DNA of 63,270 nt, filler included, from Sphacelaria rigidula (lineage: Eukaryota), in NCBI GenBank assembly GCA_964200075.2. It is 7 parts of 7 records of this genome, joined end to end, with 100 filler letters (N's around TTAATTAATTAA, not from the genome) between each part and the next. Parts side by side here need not be neighbours in the genome. Positions count along the whole stretch, not along the records: positions 18,110 to 27,062 come from CAXNAA020009666.1; 6 more parts are not named here. One strand, written 5' to 3'. The notes below the pieces were generated by a model. The model searched no databases. It was not told the origin of the DNA and saw nothing but the letters and a program-made list of their open reading frames with translations. The position numbers and the translations under genes were made by a program. Below, one piece after another: positions 8,957 through 36,115 of this stretch. Every line of letters starts with the position of its first letter. Position 1 is the stretch's first letter.

Positions 8957-9056
8957 NNNNNNNNNNNNNNNNNNNNNNNNNNNNNNNNNNNNNNNNNNNN
9001 TTAATTAATTAANNNNNNNNNNNNNNNNNNNNNNNNNNNNNNNNNNNNNNNNNNNN
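8957..9056. other. artificial scaffold spacer
   Basis: 100 nt of N with a central TTAATTAATTAA (stops in all six frames). Confidence 0.98.
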
Positions 9057-12648: not shown

Positions 12649-12717
<69 letters not shown>

Positions 12718-13504
12718 CTACACGTTAAACAATCATAGCGACGAGTGTAGTCATGGATATTATGAAATAGTTTCGAAATCTTGACACGCACGAGCAGCAC
12801 ATCACGCCAGATGATTACTTGAGCGAATGTTGACAATAGTAACCAAAACTTACTTGCAAAAACGACAGGGCCACGACGGGTCAGGGAGGTTTCTTTCTTG
12901 CCTTGTATTCCAATACTACACTACTACTGTGACGGTACCATTTGTTGGAACACTTGACAATAACGCATTCATGAACGCGTGTAGCGCGTGGCCGCAGCAG
13001 GTTTCTCGATACACATTGGTGTCTGAGCAAAAAAGTGCGCGAGAGCAATCCGTTCCGGAGGCTACTACATAAGTCACTCCTTGGAAGCACAAAGCACATG
13101 CAAACCGAAGCCTTTGGGGAGGAGGATCATAATCTTGTGTGCCGTGCGCATTTGTGTACGTGCGCATGCGAATAACTACAGTTATTTCTGACGATATATA
13201 ACATCCCCATATATCGCAATGAGCTGCATATACCCATATTGCGCATAGCCATACGTAACACATATGCTCCGCTCACTCTACAGTATATAGCACCTGAGGT
13301 ATGAGCACGGTATGACAGTCCTGCATGGTACTGCATGTACCGTCTAGTATACAGTATATTGTTGTGATTGTATAGGCCACGGCTGGACCCCTGCTGGGGC
13401 GGGGTAAGTTAAAGTACGGCAGTTAATCAATCAATCAATTATCCCCATCAAAGTACATACAAACCGCGATGATATTTTTTTCACGTTTTTGATCTAAAAA
13501 ATCA

Positions 13505-14173
13505 TTCGGTTTGTCTTGGTAGATATCGGGCGACTGGATTTCAATGACCTTTATGCATACATGTGCGAGGTTCACACCGATATTCCAGCAACTTCACCAC
13601 GCCTGCAGCTGAAGCGTCACTTCGGAGCACAGGCGTGTGGGCATACAGTCGTACGCAGTTTTTGGGATTTTTGTTCAGCGAAAGCTGTTGAGAACCCTGT
13701 CCTTTAGCTCAACTGATGTATGACTTGGGGGGCAAGGGGATGAGATCTTTTCAACAATGTTTGCTGCATCTCGGATCCCATCCCCTGATTACTGTGCAGT
13801 ATGTGGGACTTACACAGCTGAGGTTGTTCGCAATACGTTCCTCTTTGCCCGAATTCTGGATGAATTGGCGGGCAAAGTGAGGATTTATTTCGAGCAGCTT
13901 CTCCTGTTCAAATGACGACTCTGCCAGTGTGTATGGGGTTTGTACAGCAGAAGAAGCTGTTCGAAATAAATAATTTCACAAATTTTGTAACAAAATAGTT
14001 TGAAATTTTCAAATTCTGAGTGCCTCTCCGTAAGGTTGCTCACAGGGTGTCGAGAAAAACGCTATAAACAATTCTGGTAGAGGTACGAGGGTTCGCAAAT
14101 ACCGTACAAGGGTTCTCACAAAAACTACGAAGAACCCTGTGCAGCACGTCCTACAGGGTGCCATCTGTCCGCG
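13505..14173 (+). mobile_element. unclassified hairpin-rich repeat, copy A, with decayed ~150-aa reading frame
   Basis: Colinear with 19690-20640. Contains a 20-bp inverted repeat (13883-13902/13952-13971) and the shared 3' end ACCCTG...AGGGTGCyATCTGTCCrCG. Confidence 0.65.
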
Positions 14174-14499
14174 TGTGAGGGTTTATGTCAATAATATCGA
14201 AATCCTCTGGATTTTTCGTAAGCAACTCGCGCTGTGGAAATCCTATACTACTGTCCAAGGTTCCTCTTCCCGAGGTTGGTACGGGCCTCCCGGGGGTGAC
14301 GCAAGTCGAAAATATATGGTTCAGATAGCCTGTTGTATCTCAATGTATAGTAGTGATCCTGGCTGTACAAAACATCGCATGTGTTATTCAATATCCTTCG
14401 GAGAAAGGGTCGACATCGTACCTGCCGACGTAGGACATGTGTGGTATTTCCGAGGTGCCAGAGTGCGAAGAAGCTCCCGTGCCACAAATATATGACAGC

Positions 14500-14582
14500 G
14501 TTCTCATGTGTTGCTTACCTTAGTCGTTTGACCATTGACCACGCATCCCTTTCGAGACGGAGCACCGTTTGGGAGGGGGGAG
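14500..14582 (+). repeat. short G-tract-flanked dispersed repeat; other copies at about 38891-38945, 45268-45318 (minus), 50085-50180 and 63158-63250
   Basis: Core CTCATTTGTTGCTTGCCTTrGTCGTnTGACCATTGACCACGCATCCCTT occurs, whole or partial, on four scaffolds. Confidence 0.8.
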
Positions 14583-15029
14583 GGGAGAGATTCGTAAAAA
14601 ATTTCCCCCCTCTGTGCCCAAATTTTGGAGAAGGGACAACGTCTCTACTCCGAACCGCAGTTGGCCACGAATATATTTGCCGCGTGTCATGAGTCATTCC
14701 TGCATTATTCCCGAGTTTGGGGGTAACGTCAGATCATGAGGTCACGACTGCACTCAGAGCAGGTCAGTTCGAGTGCGCGATGAAGGATCAATTATCGTGG
14801 GGACGTTGATTAATCCATCATCAATCAAGCAGATGCCACCAGCAGAGCCACAAACACTTCCTTCTCACGTGAAAAGCTACAGGTTGTGTGTTGTCTTGTG
14901 TACCGCGGGCGATTTCACGATACGATACACATGCGTCAACTCTCGTCAGGCGATAGGTAAGGTATACCAATGTTGTACTCTGTAGGTCATATATCCGGAA
15001 GTGGGGATTTTTTTGGTCTGACACATTAA

Positions 15030-16059
15030 CCCTTTTGGGACCGTACCCCCACTAACACAGGGTTGACCCTGTGTTGGTGAAATAATTAAAAATATGTTAT
15101 CGAGCGACCTGCCCAGTCACGGCGAGGCGAAGTTTATCGACCAGACTCGAACGATCAGCGCGGGGATTGTTGTCGAGTGGAATGCCACTGCAAAGATCGT
15201 GTGGGGCCCTATCCCTGACCCAGGTAAGCCTCCCCAGGTTTCCAAGTGCAGGGTGGTCGCAGCTTAGTTTTATGGTATTACTTGCTCTCAGTGCACTGTT
15301 CCCGAGTTTTTCTGGAGTGTTTTTTGGGTCCCAATTCTATACTGAAACGTAGTAATTTACACTAACGCAGGGTGGACCGGAAAAAACCGGGAAGGAGTGT
15401 ACATGCCACTATGTGGTCATTTTCACGAGGCACAAAATCCAGGTGGGCTGTGGAAAGACAAAAGGAGCTACCGTAATGAATTCTGCGTATCCCTCTACCG
15501 ATGACTTGCAGTGTGCAGTCCACATGTATGTAGTGGACGGGGATGACAAAGTTGTTTATAGGCAGCTGATTTCGGTAGCTGAGAATTGCCGAGAACGTGC
15601 AAGGGAGTATGCAGCGGCAGCTGCTGCTTCAGTCGGGGAGGCTTACTACACTGTACTGTACTATACTGTTGTTGTGTGCATGCGCACCGCAACACTGATA
15701 CCCTCCGAAGAGAATGTGCCGCATGCAACAAGAGGGGAAATGGCGGCCCGCCCCGACCACAAAGGGCTGTGTGGCAAGGTGATGAAGACAAAAGTATCAT
15801 CCAAAGCCACAAGTTGCCGCATCCTGTTGAAAGCTCTCTACCGCGACCCATACTGCTTTGCTACATCAGATGCGCACCACCTAATGTGCACCCTGCACAT
15901 GAAAGCAGATGGGATGAAACTTTCGGTCTTCGTCATAACAACCCTGCGGTTACATACAAACGCGGATTTTCAGCAACACGCCACTGTTTCGTGCAGACGC
16001 CAGACACATCATTCCTGACCAGCCTCATTGGTCGTTCTGGAGGCCCGGTCCCAAAAGGG
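15030..16059. mobile_element. non-autonomous piggyBac-type element
   Basis: Perfect 14-bp TIRs CCCTTTTGGGACCG (15030-15043) and CGGTCCCAAAAGGG (16046-16059), with TTAA on both sides (15026-15029, 16060-16063). No transposase motifs. Internal segment 15550-15670 has an inverted homolog at about 17540-17665. Confidence 0.88.
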
Positions 16060-16063
16060 TTAA

Positions 16064-16242
16064 TTTTGAAGATGGTCGAAATCACGACTCATAAGATCGG
16101 GATTTTTGTTTCCACCGCACTTTTTCGATCGAAAAATGATGTGCTGATAAGGCCCTGTCTCAACACAGTAGTTTTCGATCGAAAAAGTGAGGTGGAAAAC
16201 ATAAATCTCGACATGATAGGTCGATTCCAACCATCTTCAAAA
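16064..16242. repeat. ~180 bp foldback palindrome (MITE-like), partial third arm to about 16315
   Basis: Termini TTTTGAAGATGGT / ACCATCTTCAAAA; internal arms TTTCCACCGCACTTTTTCGATCGAAAA / TTTTCGATCGAAAAAGTGAGGTGGAAA. Confidence 0.75.
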
Positions 16243-18009
16243 TGAACGATGGTTTAAATTACAACCTATCAGATCGAGAATTTTTATTTCCACCGCACAA
16301 TTTTGATCGAAAACCATATATAGTGTGCGAACACAGGGTCTAAGACACGGCCTCGATGTTAGCTTCGGGGTTTGGTTGGGTTGACGCAGTAGACCTCAAG
16401 AAATGTTCGTACACAATGGTTGGCAGGAATGAATACTTGATTTTAGATTTGAGACGTTTTTCACCTCGAGAAATGTTCGTGAACAATGATTGATGGGAAA
16501 CATCATGGAGTGTGACAAGTAACACTAACCCTAATCCCGACCCAAGGCGCACGAGACTCTCGGGCAAGGAGGGTGCACAGATTCCCCCGGGTAAAGTGCG
16601 CGTTGGATCTCAAATCGTCGCCGCAGGCGCCGATTTCGACAGAAACACGTTTTGGGCGAGCTGGGTTCACTGCTCACCTGCCCCAAACCATAATTTTGAT
16701 CTTGATCCTTTTGAGACTGGGCCTCCAGAACGACCAATGAGGCTGGTAAGGAATGGCGTGTCCTGCATATGCATGAAACAGTGGCTTCATGTTGCTAAAT
16801 ATCCACGTATGTATGTAACCGCAGGGTTGGATACCACCAAAAGAAAAAAAATCGGAACAAAATCCGACATATTTTCGCGCCAATACGCATGCACACACCG
16901 CGCAACCCCAGATTCAGCAAAATGAGGTTGTTGTCTGTTGTCTACATGACATGTGGTCGAAGTTTCAGCGCGTAAAAGCACTGGAAGCGCTTGCACGGCC
17001 GTGCCTCCTGAAGTGAGCATCTCTACAGGCGTTACCGAGATAGGTACCGCGTAGAATGGCATTATCCAGAGTGTGCCCAATACGGATCGATACGTTTGTT
17101 TGCCGGGGTAGGAGCCATCCAGTAGGAAGTGAGCGTATCTGCGTGTCAACAAATACATCCACTGACGTCTCACGCAGTCTGGGCCGAAGGGACTGCGTTT
17201 TGAGGGCGTATCGATGGCATTGCCCGAAATCCGTCTTTTGCTTCGTGCGTCTGGCGCACCACGTAAAACGTGCCGCCGATCCGGGAATATGCTGTCTGTG
17301 TTGTGGTCTACCTCTGTGCCAAGTTTCAGACTGGTTCGAACAGACACGGCGCAGAAATCCACAAGCGAAGTAACGCTTGATTTGTACTGAAAATACGGTA
17401 CTAAACCCTGCTAAACGGTCGAAAGATACATGAGGTGCGTATGATATGGTATGGTCCTTGTATACGGGCATCTTGGCAGTTGACTCGCTTTTTTTATTTT
17501 GGCTCAAGATTGATAATTGAACAGCATGGGCGTTGCGCTGCAGATACAGTACAACAGTGCAGCACGCCTTTCCGAATGCAACAGCAGCTGCTGCCGCTGC
17601 ATAATCCCCCACATGTTCTGGGCAGTTCTTCGCGACGGAGGTCAGCTGCCTATACACAACAAGTTCGTTACCGATTACTTACGACCTCACCGCCGCTTCT
17701 ACCGCTCCGACAGAGGAATACGCAGAACTCATGCCTCTGGCTCGGCCTCTCGTCCCACAGCGTTGCCAGATTCAGTTGCCTTGTGAACATGACCACATAT
17801 TTAGTACTCGAGGCAAGGGCGCACAAAAAACAAATCCTGGACCCATACTCCCATTCTTGTATTTTGGGCCTTTCGAGGGGCGGGGGGGAGCGGGGGTTGT
17901 TGACATACTAATTCCTATATATACAGACGAGTCAACAGTATTTCCTTCACATGCTAAGTTACCCGACCTAAACTGGGTACGAGACACGTCCAGACATCAA
18001 TGATCAGCG

Positions 18010-18109
18010 NNNNNNNNNNNNNNNNNNNNNNNNNNNNNNNNNNNNNNNNNNNNTTAATTAATTAANNNNNNNNNNNNNNNNNNNNNNNNNNNNNNNNNNN
18101 NNNNNNNNN
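18010..18109. other. artificial scaffold spacer
   Basis: 100 nt N/TTAATTAATTAA/N. Confidence 0.98.
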
Positions 18110-18389
18110 GGCTGCTGGGAATGCTGTGCAGTGTGTCTACGCACAAACACTACTCTTCACATGCAGCTGCGGGCGCAAGGTACTGGCGGAAAAAAGAACT
18201 GATAAGGTTGGACGGAGAATCGATCCCTGACCTTCATCACTGAACAGTCTCTGTGTTACACACAGAGCTGCGCGTGGTAGTCGTTAAGGAGTGGATCATT
18301 TTTTTGTACTTCTGAATTTTGGGGCCCTCGAACGTCCGTGTCAATAACACTGAAATCCCTCGAATTGTTTTTAGAGGCACAAGTGTTAT

Positions 18390-18670
18390 GGAAATCTGAA
18401 ATTTGGACAGCCGCTGCTGTTCGAAATAAATCCTAATTGCAAACTTGGAATAGGGAAAAAAGGCTTCATTCAAAATAAATCCTAATTCCAAACTTGGAAT
18501 ATAGGGGGAAAAGTATTCATTTCGAAGAGCTTCAGCTATACAGATAATCCCATATACACTGTATATAGCAGATGGAACTTGTACACCACCAAGAACACCT
18601 GAAATTGGGTGGAGAAAGAACTTGCTCGTGAGCAGCTTCAGCTGTTCAAGTCCTATATACTGCACGCAAC
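18390..18670 (-). mobile_element. unclassified hairpin-rich repeat, partial copy C (intronic)
   Basis: Minus-strand translation QYIGLEQLKLLTSKFFL and IRIYFEQQRLSKFQI matches copies A and B. Confidence 0.55.
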
Positions 18671-19471
18671 CTTTTGTTGCAGCTGATGTCACGATAACAG
18701 ATCGCAACTGACCTCGCTCGTAGATGCATACACCTGATGAAAACCCCGTAGTCCCGCGTCGACGAAACTAACACAATATACAGGGGATAATGAAACATCG
18801 ATCTTATCGCATACTGCGTAATCGGGATATATATTCACAACAGTAACCTATACTGGACTGTACAAGGCCATTGCATGCGGGACAGTGCGCTATACCGCCG
18901 TGCTCATACGTGCGGCGCCATGTATTGCAGGTGGATAGCTGTAAATACAATGTAGATGCCTGCAGCTTATTTTGATATATGGGGCGGGTGTTATATTCCG
19001 TCACGAACTCCAGTTTTTCACGCCCGTTCCACATCATATTTGCGCGCACAGCTGCTGCAGCACATTAAGTAGGGCGTGAAAGGGAAGGGGAAAAGTATAC
19101 AGTACAGACAGCGCAGGACAATGTGTATATGTATGTTTTCTACCTACAGTGCGACGTGAAAAGGACTTGAACAACGTGCAGCATATCGTACGCGGCCTGT
19201 ATGCTGCACTACAGTATGTTATATGGCGGTGCGTCCGCAGCATACATATGATGGTGAGTGTGTATATGCGTAACATAGGCGACCGGTTGATTATTGTTCC
19301 TCGCACCCCCGCCTGTATACGCACCCCGCGTAGATGTCGTCGCCGCGCGATGTCGCGACCATGAAAGAAGAAGGTGCTCAAGTTTCCACCAACGAGAAAT
19401 ACATCATATCCACCCGCACGGCAGTGTGTATGTGTCTATATCCCTGTGCCCAACCCGTGCTCTTTGCTGCG

Positions 19472-19625
19472 GGGTTGTGGTGGTGTAGCTGGGCGGAATA
19501 ATACTGTTCTGCGGGCGGGTGCGTTTATTGATGTTCGATTTGTGTGTATCGGGTTGTGGTGGTATAGCTGGGCGGAATAATACTGTTCTGCGGGCGGGTG
19601 CGTTTATTGATGTTCGATTTGTGTG
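19472..19625. repeat. 79-bp tandem duplication (2 copies, near identical)
   Basis: GGGTTGTGGTGGTrTAGCTGGGCGGAATAATACTG...GATTTGTGTG starts at 19472 and again at 19551. Confidence 0.92.
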
Positions 19626-19689
19626 CGGTGATAAATATACGGAGTGATGGTCCACATATACTATTTATATACTAAGTGATATTTTCCAC

Positions 19690-20640
19690 ACATGGTTCGT
19701 GTTGGTAAAGGACGGAAGACGGGGTTTTGTGAAAACTGTAAAAACATTGACAAGGTATACCGGACACCTGACATCTTCCCACCTTCCCAGGGGCTTCAGA
19801 CGAAGCACAGGTGTGGAAATACGCACGTATCCAACGTGTGGGATCTCTATTCAGCGAAAGCGGTTGAGAGCTATTCATCCTTAAGCCCATGTACACATGG
19901 ACTGGGGGGCAAACGGATGAATACCTTTCAGCAATTTTTCCTGCGTGTCGGATCCCATGCGCTGGTAACGATGCCGTATGCGGGATTTGCCCAGCAGCTG
20001 ACGCTGCTCGCCAGAAAATTTCTTTTCCCCCAATCTCTGGATGAATTCGAGGGAAGAGTAAATATTTATTTCGAGCTTTTTCTGCCGGTCAAATTCTGAA
20101 TCTGCCAGTGTGCATGGGATTCGCGCAGCAGAAGACGCTGTACGAAATAGATCCTTTTTTCGCTCATCTCAAAAATGGGCGAAAAAAGGATTGATCTTGA
20201 ACATCTTCTTCTGCTCTTCTGAATAAATCCTTCTTTTTGCCGAAATAAATTCGGCGAGAAAAGGATCTGTTTTGAAGAGCTTGTCCTGCTGTCCAAAATA
20301 GATTATTTTTCGCTTGATTCAAATCGGGTGAAGAGGAATTTACCTCGGACAGGAAGACAAGATATTGAAGATATATTTATTTACAGATTTTGTACCAAAA
20401 TATTTGGAATTTTCCAAAGAAAAACTTGAGGTTTTTCCACCAAAACAATACCACATGACTGTGCAGGGCTTTGCTGACGTGCCTACACAGGGCTGCAAAT
20501 CCAACCCTGGGGAAAACCCTATCAAAACGCTACGAGGGGTACAGATTTTGCATTTCACTGTCAGTGTTTTTTCACAATGACTGTGGAGGACCCTGTACGG
20601 ACCCTGCACAGTGCGCCCCATAGGGTGCTATCTGTCCACG
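19690..20640 (+). mobile_element. unclassified hairpin-rich repeat, copy B, with near-intact ORF 19692-20150 (one internal TGA at 20097-20099)
   Basis: Homologous to 13505-14173. Hairpins at 20151-20191 and 20227-20266. Lies in an intron of the transposase pseudogene. Confidence 0.65.
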
Positions 20641-23600
20641 GATGTATGCATATGTACTACACACACATGGTCATAAAAAGAGGCGTGTGATATTATGGCG
20701 AAATAATGACTCTGAATCTTGAACATGGCATGGTCCAACCCAGTCTACATGCGGTTTCATACACCTGTGACGGGAACATTTATTGCTCAACTTCGATTTA
20801 TCACCGTGATGCACGCGGAAGACCCTATTCGTGAGATTCAGAGGGTTGTATTAGAGTCGGAGTGGATACTCCAGCGTTCCCAACAGGAACATTTCATTAT
20901 TTTGTTTTTGCTTGAGCATTATCACTTGTTGCGATCAAGTGATGTGTCAAAATGATCGTGTAGATGACAGCTTTCATTGAAGCCACCTCTTCACCAGCTG
21001 AGCGCATTACTCCTCGATCTGTAGCAATGTCAAAATCGACGGGAAAGTCGATTGTTTCGGGTCTCACTCTGAATCTGAAACGACCCTCTGAATCTCACGA
21101 ATGTTGTGTTTCGGGTGTTGTGTCAGGGGCGACGGTGGTCCAGGAGACGGTAGGGATCCTGTTCACCGAAACAAAATCCTGGCGTTCCTCGAGAGATACG
21201 CAGGAATGTACGGGCAAAACATGCCGCACCAGAATGCTATATACTTCTACATGAGAAACAAACAGGTGGGTGAATGTAGGCAGCGCTTGCACAGCCATTG
21301 TTTCGTTCGCGCTTATCGACCGATATGTGTGTGTGGGCGGTGGTTGGGGGGGGGGGCTGCCTCTCGGGGCATCACCCACGGTGAACCGCGTCTTATTTCA
21401 GTTTCATCTGGTACTTTTTTGCCAAAACATTTGAGGAAGCAGTTGGTAAATATCGTTTTGATTTGTGTTTTTGTCGGACTAGAGATACGGGCCTGGAACA
21501 CTTCGATCCCCGACGGTGTTCATAGTCTTCGATCCCAATTCAAATGACTGGACCATCGACTACCCCTTAGCGCATCTAGCACGCGATTTCGGAAATTGAG
21601 CACAGTTGTTATGAAGGAATAACGCTGGGACCCGCCACAAGCATCGAATTGTTTTCGAAGTATAATTACAAATGCACTCTCCGGCCGTAATGTGTGGCGT
21701 CGCTCATTATGGGAGAAGACGCCGATCATTTGTAAAATCCCGTGTTTTGTAGGGGACTCTGGAATACAAGAGCAGTGCAAAGTATAGGAAGGACCGGAGG
21801 ATTGACCTGTTCCGTGTAAGTACAGGTTGCCGCAAGTTGCAGACGGACTATTGTTCAGGAGGAGCCACGCCACACGGCACAATCGGAGAGGGCAGTTTTG
21901 TTGTGTATTGTGTAATTGTAGTGATGCTTACGAAGGCTCCCAACGCTCAACCTCACCGAAATATCCATCCCCAATTTTCAATATCGCGTCGTATCTGATT
22001 CAGTTCAACAGTCGGATCCGTCCCCCCTGCGAATAGCGTCGCAGAGAGAGGCAATGCGGTGGATGACAGTACAGATATACGCGCCGGAGCCCGGGACGCA
22101 GCGCATCGCGCTTGTGTGCCAGTTGTTTGGCTTCATGCGCACGCTGATGTTGCGCTAACAACTTCATGCGCGCGCACAATTTCGTAGCCATATAGCGTAA
22201 CTATCCGGCGTTGCGGGCTCAACTTCCTGCGCACGATCCCTCGAAACACGCGACCACCTCACATCCCCAATGACAGGAAGTATATGATGCGTTCGTGGAG
22301 GATATGCGTAGTACGGGAGGAGGGGCGGCCGCAAGTCTTCGCTATTTTTACACCACGATGCGCAAGGACCGACCCCACTACAAGGCCAAGGTAGGCGGCA
22401 CATTCATGAAGTGTAACGCGTGCACTCTGTACCATATCACCCTTAATGGGAGTTCTGGTGTGAGGGTCACCGCTGACCCCGGCAAGATCGATGAGGTCGC
22501 TATGGAGCAGAAGGCGCACTTGCAAGTGAGTCGTCTTTTCGTCGAAATTGTCGGCAGCTCGTGATGTAACCGGAAAAACGAAGATACGCAACATGTGAGA
22601 TTGCGCCACGATTTACATCCAAAGCAGTCGCAGGGGTATCGAATCAGTCAAGGGGAGGATATTTCCGGACAACTATATTTCCTCAGCTCGTACCTGCAGC
22701 GACCCGTCGATACCAAATGTTTCGACGCGAGCACGCGTCGAAATTCTGTCGAGTAAACCTCCATCTCCCTATGCGACCTCGGCTGATTCCGTCACGGTAT
22801 CGCCAGTCGCGAGTGCCCCTCCATTCAATTTTCCCAGGTCCATGTGACCGAGTAGCGTTTCCCAGTTACACATTGTCTTGGCGGAAACTCTCTCCGCCCG
22901 AGCCGCGTATCAATAGCCGACCGTGTTTTTTATCATTTGCCTTGCTTATTTTTAGTTCGTTACTTCGGATTGGTTTCGTTTGTTGTGTGTATGTTGATCT
23001 GAATTCATCAACTATGTTTGTGTTTTTAATATCTGTGGTTACTTCACGCCTCCCGAGCGGGTGTTTCTGTGCTTCCTTCAATCCCGGGTTCGTCTTTCAT
23101 GGGACCACGGCTGGAGGCACGTGGTTTGCCCCAACGGTAGATACAACGCTCGAGATATTCATCAACCTTACGATGCGGACCTCCCCTCGACCGTTACAGT
23201 TGGTGACTCTAGACCGTCAGCACCTGGCTTTCATTAGTCGGGCTGCCATTCGAGCGAAGGCCAATCAGGAGCCGTTGAAGTTCGTGTCTCTACAAGCCGA
23301 TACAGCAGCTCAAACGGTGTTCGCTCTACCTGTGTTCTCCAGTGACGCACGGCACAGATAAGTGAGTATGAACGACAAATGACCGTGCATTCGACGGTGT
23401 CCCCCTTTGGTTAGCGCCTCCAACACTCGCGCACACCTACGGTCATGGCGCTAGCGGATACTCGTTCGCGCATGCGTCGACGTCGATGTAGACTGTACCG
23501 TATCTGATTCGACTCCACAATTGTACACGATGCGCGATGCGGCGACTGACAGGGGATATGCCGAACGCCAAAACATCATGGCAGTTCTCGTGGAGGGCCA

Positions 23601-33005: not shown

Positions 33006-33594
33006 AATGGAGTCACAAGCCCTTATTGCAATGGAATCCTAAACCCACAATCAATGTCCATCCGATTCAAAAGAAATTTGTGAGGCTTACCTGCATCCAA
33101 CGGTCTGGAACACATAATGTCAAACGAGAAGCATCGCTGCACCATTTAAAGAAACATTGGAATAAACGTCAGAGTAATGCTACGGTAGGGATGCACAAAT
33201 GTTTTCTGAGGTTAGAATCGTTGGGAGCCCTTTATTTCATTCAAAGCATAACTTATGAAAGTTATGAGAGTACACCATAATTACTATTTTCATGTGCCGG
33301 GGATTTCCCGAATGCAATTGCAAACGGGAAATGCCCTGACCCATATTCTTGTGCATCTAGAATCGTTAGAAGCCCCTGAACCAGACAAGTTTTTGCGCAA
33401 AATGTGCACCCCTACGGTAGCATCGCTCAATGGAGCCACAAGCCCTTATTGCAATGGAGTCCTAAACCCACAATCAATGTCTATCAGACTCAAGAGATTA
33501 TTGTGAGGCTTACCTGCACCCAACGTTCTGGAACACATAATGTCAAACGAGAAGCATCGCTTCATCATCTGAAGAAGCATCAGAATAAACGTCA
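33006..33594. mobile_element. 257-bp TIR element (33172-33428) flanked by a 166-bp direct duplication (33006-33171 and 33429-33594)
   Basis: TIRs GAGTAATGCTACGGTAGGGATGCACA / TGTGCACCCCTACGGTAGCATCGCTC. The same TIR motif occurs at 32654-32670 and 36278-36298. Both flanks start AATGGAGyCACAAGCCC and end AATAAACGTCA. Confidence 0.8.
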
Positions 33595-36115
33595 GTTAAA
33601 GTCATCCTCCGTATCTGATTTAACATCGCTAGGTCCGAGATAAGTTCCCCTTTCCTTCGCCACATGTACCCGACTCGTCAAGTCTATATATTTCATCGTC
33701 GGGCACTTGTACCGCACCAACCTCACGTTGTGCTTTTCAGCTTTGCTATATGTTCCCGTCGAATACGCCCTTCTAAATAGGCTATGTACTCACCTGGATC
33801 TACACTCTCTCTAGTACCGATGCTTCGTGTGCGAGTGCTAGCATTTTCATGCAAAATCACTGATGCCCTCCTGCATCAGAGTAGCCCCATAGTGCCAAGG
33901 GATCACTCATTTTCTTCCCTTACATTTCCTTGCTTTCGAGCAGCGGATCGGTACAATCGTGTGATGTGATAAGACAAGGAGTATGAAGTTGCGCTGTCAA
34001 GATACGGGAAAGCACGAAGTTATCAAAGCCGCATAATATCCCGAACGCCTTCAACAACTCGGAGGGTAGTGTGGTTTGTGTGCAACGTTCGTGATTTGAT
34101 GTAGTTTTGAAGTGTTTGTATCCAAGATCGCAAAGGGAGCGCGGGAATTATCTCATACAGTATTTCGACGTACAATTTCGGTCCGGCTGTCTTATCGTGC
34201 CACCAACAGCACCGGAGGTTTGAGACAGGCTTGTTTCCAGATACTTCGTCAGAAGTGGTCTTGATTTCTGTGAGTTGTTATTGGCCCTTGCACGAAGAAC
34301 GAAACTGCACTATCTCGGGGAAGAAAGGGCAAGGGGGGGGGGGGGGGGGGGGGGGCCACGCGCAGAAAAAAAATAGAGCCGGGCTAAAGGGGCAGGGGGC
34401 GGTGGTTGGTCCCAGGTAGACGCCTTGTTGCTNNNNNNNNCAGGGGGGGGGGGGGGGGGGGGGGGGGGGTGGGGGGGGGGGGGAGGGGGGGGGGGGGGGG
34501 GGGGGGGGGCGGGGGCTACGCGCAGAACATAAATAGAGCCGTGCTTAATGGGCAAGGCGCGATTGTTGGTTCCATGTAGACTTCATGCTGCTTATGCGGG
34601 ATAGTATGAGTATTCTTTTTAGCGCTCTTTCAACTCCCTCCCGATTCAGGGGTCCCGTACTCGATAGATCGGCTAATCTTTCCACCTTCGGCTTCAATTT
34701 TGTTTCATACCTTGATAATTTCGACCCCCCACCCTCTCCTGGACGAGTGCGTAGTCTCGATGTATCAAGCTGTCTGTTCCCCCTGTAAGTGACTCCTGTT
34801 TTATTATCGAAGATGAAATCAGCACTCCCGCAGCGAGTCGGCTCCAGCAGAATTCCTTTGTCACTGACGCCCCCATGTATTCGACAACAGAAACCAAAAT
34901 GTTCTCCAAAACAAATGGCGTGCCTGTCGGGACTCTATCCCTGAAGCTCCTGCCCTAGTCGACTCAAGACGCGCCAGTTACACCCTCCGGGCAAGGTAGC
35001 CATACTTGCCCTGCACTCTATCACCGAGCATTGAAACATGACCATCAGCACTTCCGTAGTCTGTTGACTATCACCGGGCTATTGTGTCAGCTTCTATTCT
35101 CACATGAGAGGATCGTTGAAACCCGGGGAACAGCTCTCCTGCCGGGATTTGAGCCAAAACATTCCCCCCGAAGTAGTGCTTGTGACCCACTTTCATCCCC
35201 CCGGGCACGACGGAAGTGCCCTCCTCGTACAAAAATGCCTCGAATTCACTGATACACGAAGAGGGGTGACTGCCATTGTGCGCTGGAACCACTGCATCTG
35301 AGAACGGCCGTCGCAGTAATAGCCCGGACTAAATAATCACACGGTATTTTGACACTTTCTACGATAGCCCCCCCCCCAAAACCAGCCCAAAAGTGTCACG
35401 AAAAAAGGGTCACACAGCGCCTGATGTTTGGGTTTAGGCTGCATGAAACGCCTCATATTGGCAACAATAACGAGAACGAACCCAAGCGTGGGAATTCCCA
35501 GCTGCTCGTTGTGCTCGGCGTTTCCCATTTCGATTTACGTGAAAATTTTGCCTCCCAAAACCATGCTCTTTTGGGGGGGGGGGCTATCGCAGAAAGTGTC
35601 TTGTACTTTGCATGTTCAAATGTCCCGTGAAGACATGAGTTCCGAACCCTTCATCCGCGCTGCGTTCACCGTCTTGTGGGACCAAATTGCGACATTTAGT
35701 TGTTTTGTCCAGCCATACCAAAGAAGCTACAGAGTGATCCTAAACGAGGGGTGGGGCGGGGGGGACGGGGGTTCGATTCCACGGGAAAAGGTCCATGGGT
35801 GTGGTAAATGTCCTCGCATACTCGGAGTGCTCTTGTATGTGGGTGGAAACGGTGTCAAGCAGCATGAATGAGCGTTTTCCATCGATGACGACCGCGTTCG
35901 AACAAGTGTTGCTGCGTTTGTGGAAGACATGGCCTCAAATATCCCTCCCCCCCCCCTGCGGGGCTTTGTAGGGATGCGAGGTCAATAGTCTGATGACTAT
36001 GGCATGCATGATCATGAGTACACCCTCCCCCCCCCCCCCCGTCGACTTAATTTTATATACCCAAAAAGACAGGACAGCCTGTTTATACCCGCTAATGAGT
36101 GGTACCAATATACTA

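Follow-up and report, generated by a model that had tools for sequence, protein, structure and literature searches.

A probable non-autonomous EnSpm/CACTA-type transposon family with an inverted-repeat array and a tRNA-like cassette in the brown alga Sphacelaria rigidula

The genome of the brown alga Sphacelaria rigidula contains a dispersed family of repeats, comprising several subfamilies without coding capacity, whose members appear to be non-autonomous DNA transposons of the EnSpm/CACTA type (CMC). We place the probability of this assignment at roughly 0.8; it is made from the ends of the elements and their target-site duplications (TSDs), not from a transposase. The unusual feature of the element is a tRNA-like cassette near its left end, and in all other respects it is an ordinary kind of transposon. 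The catalogue of brown algal repeats, of which little is known, thereby gains a well-defined family.

The analysis began from a window of 63,270 nucleotides, assembled from seven parts of GenBank assembly GCA_964200075.2. In keeping with the host, the best named relatives of the plastid Ycf4 encoded in this assembly come from brown algae. The linkers between parts, of the form N44-12 nt-N44, at positions 8957-9056 and at five similar sites (with TTAATTAATTAA at 18054-18065) are artefacts of how the window was built. An earlier note on this DNA had described a repeat of about 1 kb in three copies on two unlinked scaffolds: copy A (13505-14173, plus strand), copy B (19690-20640, plus strand) and copy C (18390-18670, minus strand). 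Homologous stretches do lie at these places, A on contig C9665 and both B and C on contig C9666. A and B align with 72.7% identity over 359 nt. C is a weaker, inverted match: the part that precedes its array matches the corresponding part of the A majority sequence with a score of 99 (shuffle maximum 57), and that of the B majority with a score of only 61 (shuffle maximum 61).

DNA searches of the assembly produced 519 candidates for B, 1193 for A and 295 for C, of which 40 were scored for each query. In many contigs, matches to B and C occur together at a fixed spacing; thus, B and C are parts of one element rather than separate copies. Instead of three copies, the genome contains hundreds of ends of this family. 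The supposed 1-kb unit is the right module of elements that are mostly 1.1-2.8 kb long, and complete copies elsewhere in the genome measure 0.6-2.8 kb between facing terminal inverted repeats (TIRs). The description of a mobile unit holds. The family is dispersed and has shared sharp ends, TIRs and a 2-bp TSD.

The element that unites B and C, here called the BC subfamily, occupies 18110-20644 (plus strand) and is 2.6-2.8 kb long when whole. From element position 187 onward, the window example is 89-91% identical to a complete copy (C21507); approximately the first 185 bp, including the left TIR, have been lost at the contig start. Copy C corresponds to a second, inverted and more diverged array module within this element (18380-18790, minus strand). 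Beside it lies a non-coding middle segment (18811-19493, minus strand) with 70-82% identity to three long A-type elements (L034, L045 and L051) on the opposite strand. Because the BC middle is inverted relative to these long A-type copies, copy C presumably arrived with an inverted middle-plus-array segment. The BC subfamily presumably formed when an element received such a segment from a sibling in reversed orientation, which gave rise to copy C. A near-exact duplication of 75 bp is also present inside the BC element (19472-19625). Copy A belongs to a subfamily that is sister to BC. What the window contains of the A element is its right-hand 1033 bp (13145-14177, plus strand), which are 74% identical to complete copy L034 at positions 961-1960; about 960 bp of the left side are absent.

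Homology among 30 B loci ends 4 nt past window position 20640. Complete copies carry on their left side, in inverted orientation, the 25-mer of this right end, which in its family form is CACACGTGGACAGATAGCACCCTGT and begins with CACAC; it is the TIR of the family. The right TIR lies at 20620-20644 (minus strand) in the BC element, where it is degenerate at the tip, and at 14153-14177 (minus strand) in the A element. Copies A and B, for which no TIRs had been reported, thus both terminate in the family TIR. Neither window element retains its left end, which is why the TIR pair is not visible in the window. Exact searches of the genome with three TIR variants gave 199, 133 and 48 matches, or 380 ends, and reversed-pattern controls gave none.

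A 2-bp TSD of variable sequence was observed for 36 of 50 end pairs, where about 3 would be expected (chance of about 1 in 16). The fraction was 10/17, 12/16 and 14/17 in three sets, the second and third of which were picked from exact TIR matches. No 2-bp match was present in the other 14 pairs, some of which have visibly nested or mismatched ends.

Inside the right TIR of the BC element is a subterminal region carrying ACAGGGT/ACCCTGT repeats (20400-20619, plus strand; the inner boundary is approximate). In 13 complete elements, the motif ACAGGGY/RCCCTGT lies chiefly within 250 bp of either end, and the middle is free of it in 11. A terminal ACCCTG..AGGGT stem common to A and B had been noticed previously; we find it as well, and it consists of the inner TIR and a subterminal ACAGGGT repeat. 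Short subterminal repeats in both orientations are a feature of plant En/Spm elements. CACTA elements are mobilized by a DDE transposase, which binds both their TIRs and their subterminal repeats, cuts the element out and reinserts it with a 2-bp stagger. By this model, a DDE transposase from an unseen, probably much longer autonomous element would bind the TIRs and subterminal repeats of the Sphacelaria family and, acting in trans, would excise non-autonomous copies and reinsert them with a 2-bp stagger.

Published work assigns non-autonomous elements to CACTA/CMC on the basis of CAC..GTG ends and a 2-bp TSD (PMC6004678; PMC12730594). The CACAC TIRs and 2-bp TSD therefore place the Sphacelaria family with non-autonomous DNA transposons of the EnSpm/CACTA type, and the proposal of a possibly undescribed element class gives way to a known one. 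According to the same papers, the CACTA/EnSpm elements of the CMC(T) clade have 5'-CAC..GTG-3' ends and TSDs within 2-5 bp, and a TSD of 2 bp, as in our family, characterizes ENS1_Cis and CMC-NA_1/2. The Sphacelaria family differs from CACTA/EnSpm elements in that no transposase or TnpA-like gene was seen in it, its fifth base departs from CACTA/CACTG, and it carries a long internal array of alternating arms.

By its description, the closest known element is EnSpm-N1_Ec32 of the brown alga Ectocarpus. The Ectocarpus library (PMC12477816, supplement 1) includes five EnSpm families with CAC ends and a 2-bp TSD. In that library, EnSpm-N1_Ec32, EnSpm-N2_Ec32 and EnSpm-N3_Ec32 share with our family a brown algal host, a non-autonomous nature, CAC termini, a 2-bp TSD and a TIR of 20-25 bp, and EnSpm-N1_Ec32 has "complex palindromes in subtermini," comparable to the array-bearing Sphacelaria family. 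However, these three Ectocarpus elements are 6.9-11.2 kb long with CACAG/CACCG ends, whereas the Sphacelaria elements are 0.6-2.8 kb long with CACAC ends. The word "tRNA" is absent from the transposable element table and main text of PMC12477816.

The ends also resemble those of hAT-2_Ec32 (hAT-2_ESi), which the Ectocarpus table gives as having CACAC-GTGTG termini and a TIR of similar length (PMC12477816, supplement 1, row 124). Elements with the anatomy described here might accordingly be moved by a transposase outside EnSpm proper, either from another CMCT lineage or from a hAT-like enzyme that produces a 2-bp duplication. The 8-bp TSD of hAT-2_Ec32 is only assumed in that table, and 139 matches to the hAT dimerisation domain were found among 150 scored candidates in Sphacelaria. 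Profile searches of the assembly with the EnSpm-type Pfam families (PF02992, PF18759, PF13960 and PF06918), run without a positive control, yielded no match. However, hAT elements are expected to generate an 8-bp TSD, or one of 5-8 bp by a published account (PMC12730594), whereas the duplication here is 2 bp; an 8-bp duplication was absent from all 34 end pairs, tested to 10 bp. Moreover, the hAT domain was seen in none of the elements examined. Mobilization from outside EnSpm is thus quite improbable, and an EnSpm/CACTA-type enzyme is the preferred reading.

A search for the autonomous partner found none in the 60 stretches examined, and 65 open frames in or adjoining elements gave one weak match, under the cut-off. 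Gene-bearing EnSpm elements of Ectocarpus are 12-15 kb long (PMC12477816, supplement 1), and the contigs of the Sphacelaria assembly are mostly 5-15 kb. Because such elements would be longer than most contigs here, a blank search is expected. A search with PF20231 (DUF6589) recovered a transposase-like family, one copy of which (on C4986) has the TIR and array of our element just upstream. This family was rejected as the partner, given that 24 other loci are without the TIR and array and that the family has its own end, ...AYACTG, in three copies.

The DUF6589 element is itself multi-copy and longer than 10 kb (L156-L159 and L196-L207; contigs C12991, C4986, C2678 and others), and its protein carries the motifs FDNND, GDEETY, HPGGWHLMLH and LDEYHE. 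A deleted copy of the CACTA-type element, comprising TIR and array, lies within the 5' part of one DUF6589 element (L159:3369-3765). Intronless PPR genes adjoin two truncated copies of the CACTA-type element (L094:1240-3801 and L104:1993-3726).

The repeat had been reported to encode a conserved protein of about 150 amino acids, with many synonymous differences between A and B. The quoted peptide can indeed be read in copy B, as 135 codons, a TGA and 17 more codons. This open reading frame (ORF; 19692-20150, plus strand) is best regarded as a chance open frame of copy B, and about two thirds of it consist of array arms. When the window copies B and A are compared in this frame, 48 codons are identical, 18 differ synonymously, 75 differ non-synonymously and 2 are stop codons, which does not confirm a synonymous bias. 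Mismatches by codon position number 46/43/39, and 10 of the 11 indels in the ORF shift the frame. The majority sequence of the B subfamily has two frame shifts relative to window copy B; the 135-codon frame is largely private to that copy. A comparison of the subfamily majorities gives a frame shift at 8 of 11 gaps and a pN/pS of about 0.87 (hand-summed over five blocks).

A tree of 87 copies gives the same picture. On its internal branches there are 134 changes that are synonymous, 325 that are non-synonymous and 14 that create a stop codon. The synonymous fraction is 0.283 on internal branches and 0.262 on tips, within the range of 0.221-0.296 observed for the other five frames, and a dN/dS-type ratio of internal to tip branches is 0.92. 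The only further support for a protein, apart from the open frame of copy B, is the share of internal-branch changes that fall at third positions (213/556, or 0.38), and the same share is found in one reverse frame. Three core motifs occur together in one open frame in only 8 of the 87 copies, and the ORF contains repeats of the same arm in either orientation. No homologue was found among 5.8 billion proteins of 74-237 amino acids, and no family in Pfam or the ESM Atlas (recognition 1623). With ratios near 1 both between subfamilies and within the tree, the ORF is without protein-level selection, and it is extremely unlikely that the repeat encodes a conserved protein. The family is instead a clean example of a hairpin array that mimics a conserved ORF.

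The hairpins noticed in the same region are real. Both copies fold far beyond chance, copy B with a z-score of -11.5 and copy A with one of -6.5, each relative to 20 shuffles. The array is built from one arm of about 55 bp in alternating orientation, starting at 13664 in A and at 19840 in B, and it is these alternating inverted arms that create the hairpins. Copy A has five alternating arms (13664-13988) with scores of 45, 41, 48, 51 and 70. The array of copy B (19840-20330) is degenerate inside and better kept outside; its arms score 37-68, relative to a shuffle 95th percentile of 38 and maximum of 42. The two innermost B arms, with scores of 37-38, stand at the 95th percentile, and their identification leans on the alignment with A. 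The number of outer arms differs between copies, and an array is found in every subfamily seen.

The persistence of the array could mean that it is a selected single-stranded structure, either a hairpin RNA feeding small RNAs or a cruciform DNA, that benefits the element. The two long hairpins still form in both subfamily majorities, with folding energies of -47 to -58 kcal/mol. A 92-pair structure based on the A majority has 84.3% paired cells, compared with 83.6% in column shuffles (0/500 as high), and its covariation score was matched by 13 of 500 shuffles. Of five measures, these two exceed shuffles. However, 22 pairs have changed on both sides, where 23.5 would be expected (372/500 shuffles). 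Compensatory pairs between the subfamily majorities amount to 1/48 and 0/44, compared with 8 and 9 broken pairs, and RNAalifold retains only 20 pairs. The number of units also varies freely. Rfam recognizes no family in window positions 12700-20800, where three weak miRNA matches fall far under the cut-offs.

Covariation is weak. Weak selection on the structure of the array may act, but a selected structure that benefits the element seems unlikely. For what had been proposed as a structured 3' RNA or ssDNA region, an array of inverted repeats at the DNA level is the better explanation, and inverted duplication accounts for it without selection on RNA. The array presumably grew through local inverted duplication, and both the hairpins and the apparent ORF would be by-products of this growth.

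The tRNA-like cassette is of the Pol III type and points at the left TIR. In the BC element of the window it lies at 18190-18277 (minus strand), with an A box at 18261-18277, a variable spacer at 18229-18260, a B box at 18216-18228 and a T-run at 18190-18195. The cassette is present in both subfamily groups, 340-450 bp inside the left end, and the B box follows about 43 nt after the A box. A strict A-box/B-box/T-run pattern, composed after the sequences had been viewed, matched 9 of 29 complete elements, always between 344 and 449 bp inside the left end; among 2900 shuffles, it matched 3.

Among 12 nuclear tRNAs compared, host tRNA-Asn is the one that BC cassettes resemble, with a mean local score of 50 (shuffles 26); A-type copies score 33. 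The cassette does not have the cloverleaf structure of a functional tRNA, as judged by ARAGORN, which found no tRNA genes in the window and 37 loci, and by the Rfam tRNA model, which matched neither of two cassette copies. The A box, the B box about 43 nt later and the resemblance to host tRNA-Asn recall tRNA-derived SINE heads and tRNA pseudogenes; unlike these, the cassette ends in a T-run as a tRNA gene does and occupies a single fixed position within a DNA transposon. Of 33 exact matches to the 17-nt A box, 28 are on contigs already seen to carry the element (compared by eye), which rules out a free high-copy SINE.

The cassette also stands out in its rate of change. In the spacer, diversity among 27 BC copies is 0.37-0.39, and in the upstream flank it is 0.33; elsewhere it is mostly 0.04-0.12. 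Tip changes per site, counted in 29 copies, are most frequent upstream (2.50) and in the spacer (2.34), with values of 1.23 for the B box, 0.82 for the A box and 0.84 for the remaining sequence; the counts are inflated by two spacer subtypes and by alignment noise. The spacer and upstream flank thus evolve roughly threefold faster than the remaining sequence. The A-type set shows a weaker contrast (0.45-0.55 versus a mean of 0.33). At active tRNA loci, flanks are 3-4-fold more divergent (PMC6130373). Because the fast spacer and flank match this behavior, past Pol III transcription is a likely cause, and the cassette is probably the remnant of a captured tRNA gene that was once transcribed by Pol III, as its mutation pattern suggests. 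Several points speak against past transcription as the cause: the commonest change is A>G and not C>T, the counts are inflated, and the contrast in the A-type set is weaker. Contigs from three runs that are tentatively taken to be RNA span the whole element and provide no evidence for or against expression. Nothing relevant on tRNA-like cassettes or Pol III units in elements of this kind turned up in the literature searched, which leaves Repbase and most subscription papers outside.

A more speculative possibility, which we consider doubtful, is that the cassette has been kept through all subfamilies as a selected, protein-free anti-silencing device of a CACTA-type transposon. If so, bound TFIIIC/Pol III would keep the transposase-binding end in open chromatin or, alternatively, an RNA of about 90 nt with a fast-changing middle would act on silencing, and the hairpin array at the opposite end would be a platform for protein binding or small RNAs. 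The family could be used to test whether a DNA transposon escapes silencing with the aid of Pol III units. In addition, hundreds of copies with conserved boxes and a fast-changing spacer and flank offer a test of Pol III mutagenicity outside true tRNA genes.

Several other repeats are present in the window. Another inverted-repeat element lies to the right of copy B (20827-20864 and 21065-21102), and positions 20918-21200 have several-fold higher contig depth than the CACTA-type element in the three runs presumed to be RNA. Long imperfect palindromes unrelated to the array, at 16059-16314 and 40170-40303, are probably other MITE or foldback repeats. Direct repeats, comprising a tandem with a period of about 200 bp and a 167-bp duplication, occur at 43603-44253 and 33006-33595. 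Finally, a short dispersed repeat has seven copies in the window (14498-14585, 35970-36040, 38888-38945, 45268-45326, 50091-50181, 50571-50663 and 63150-63251).
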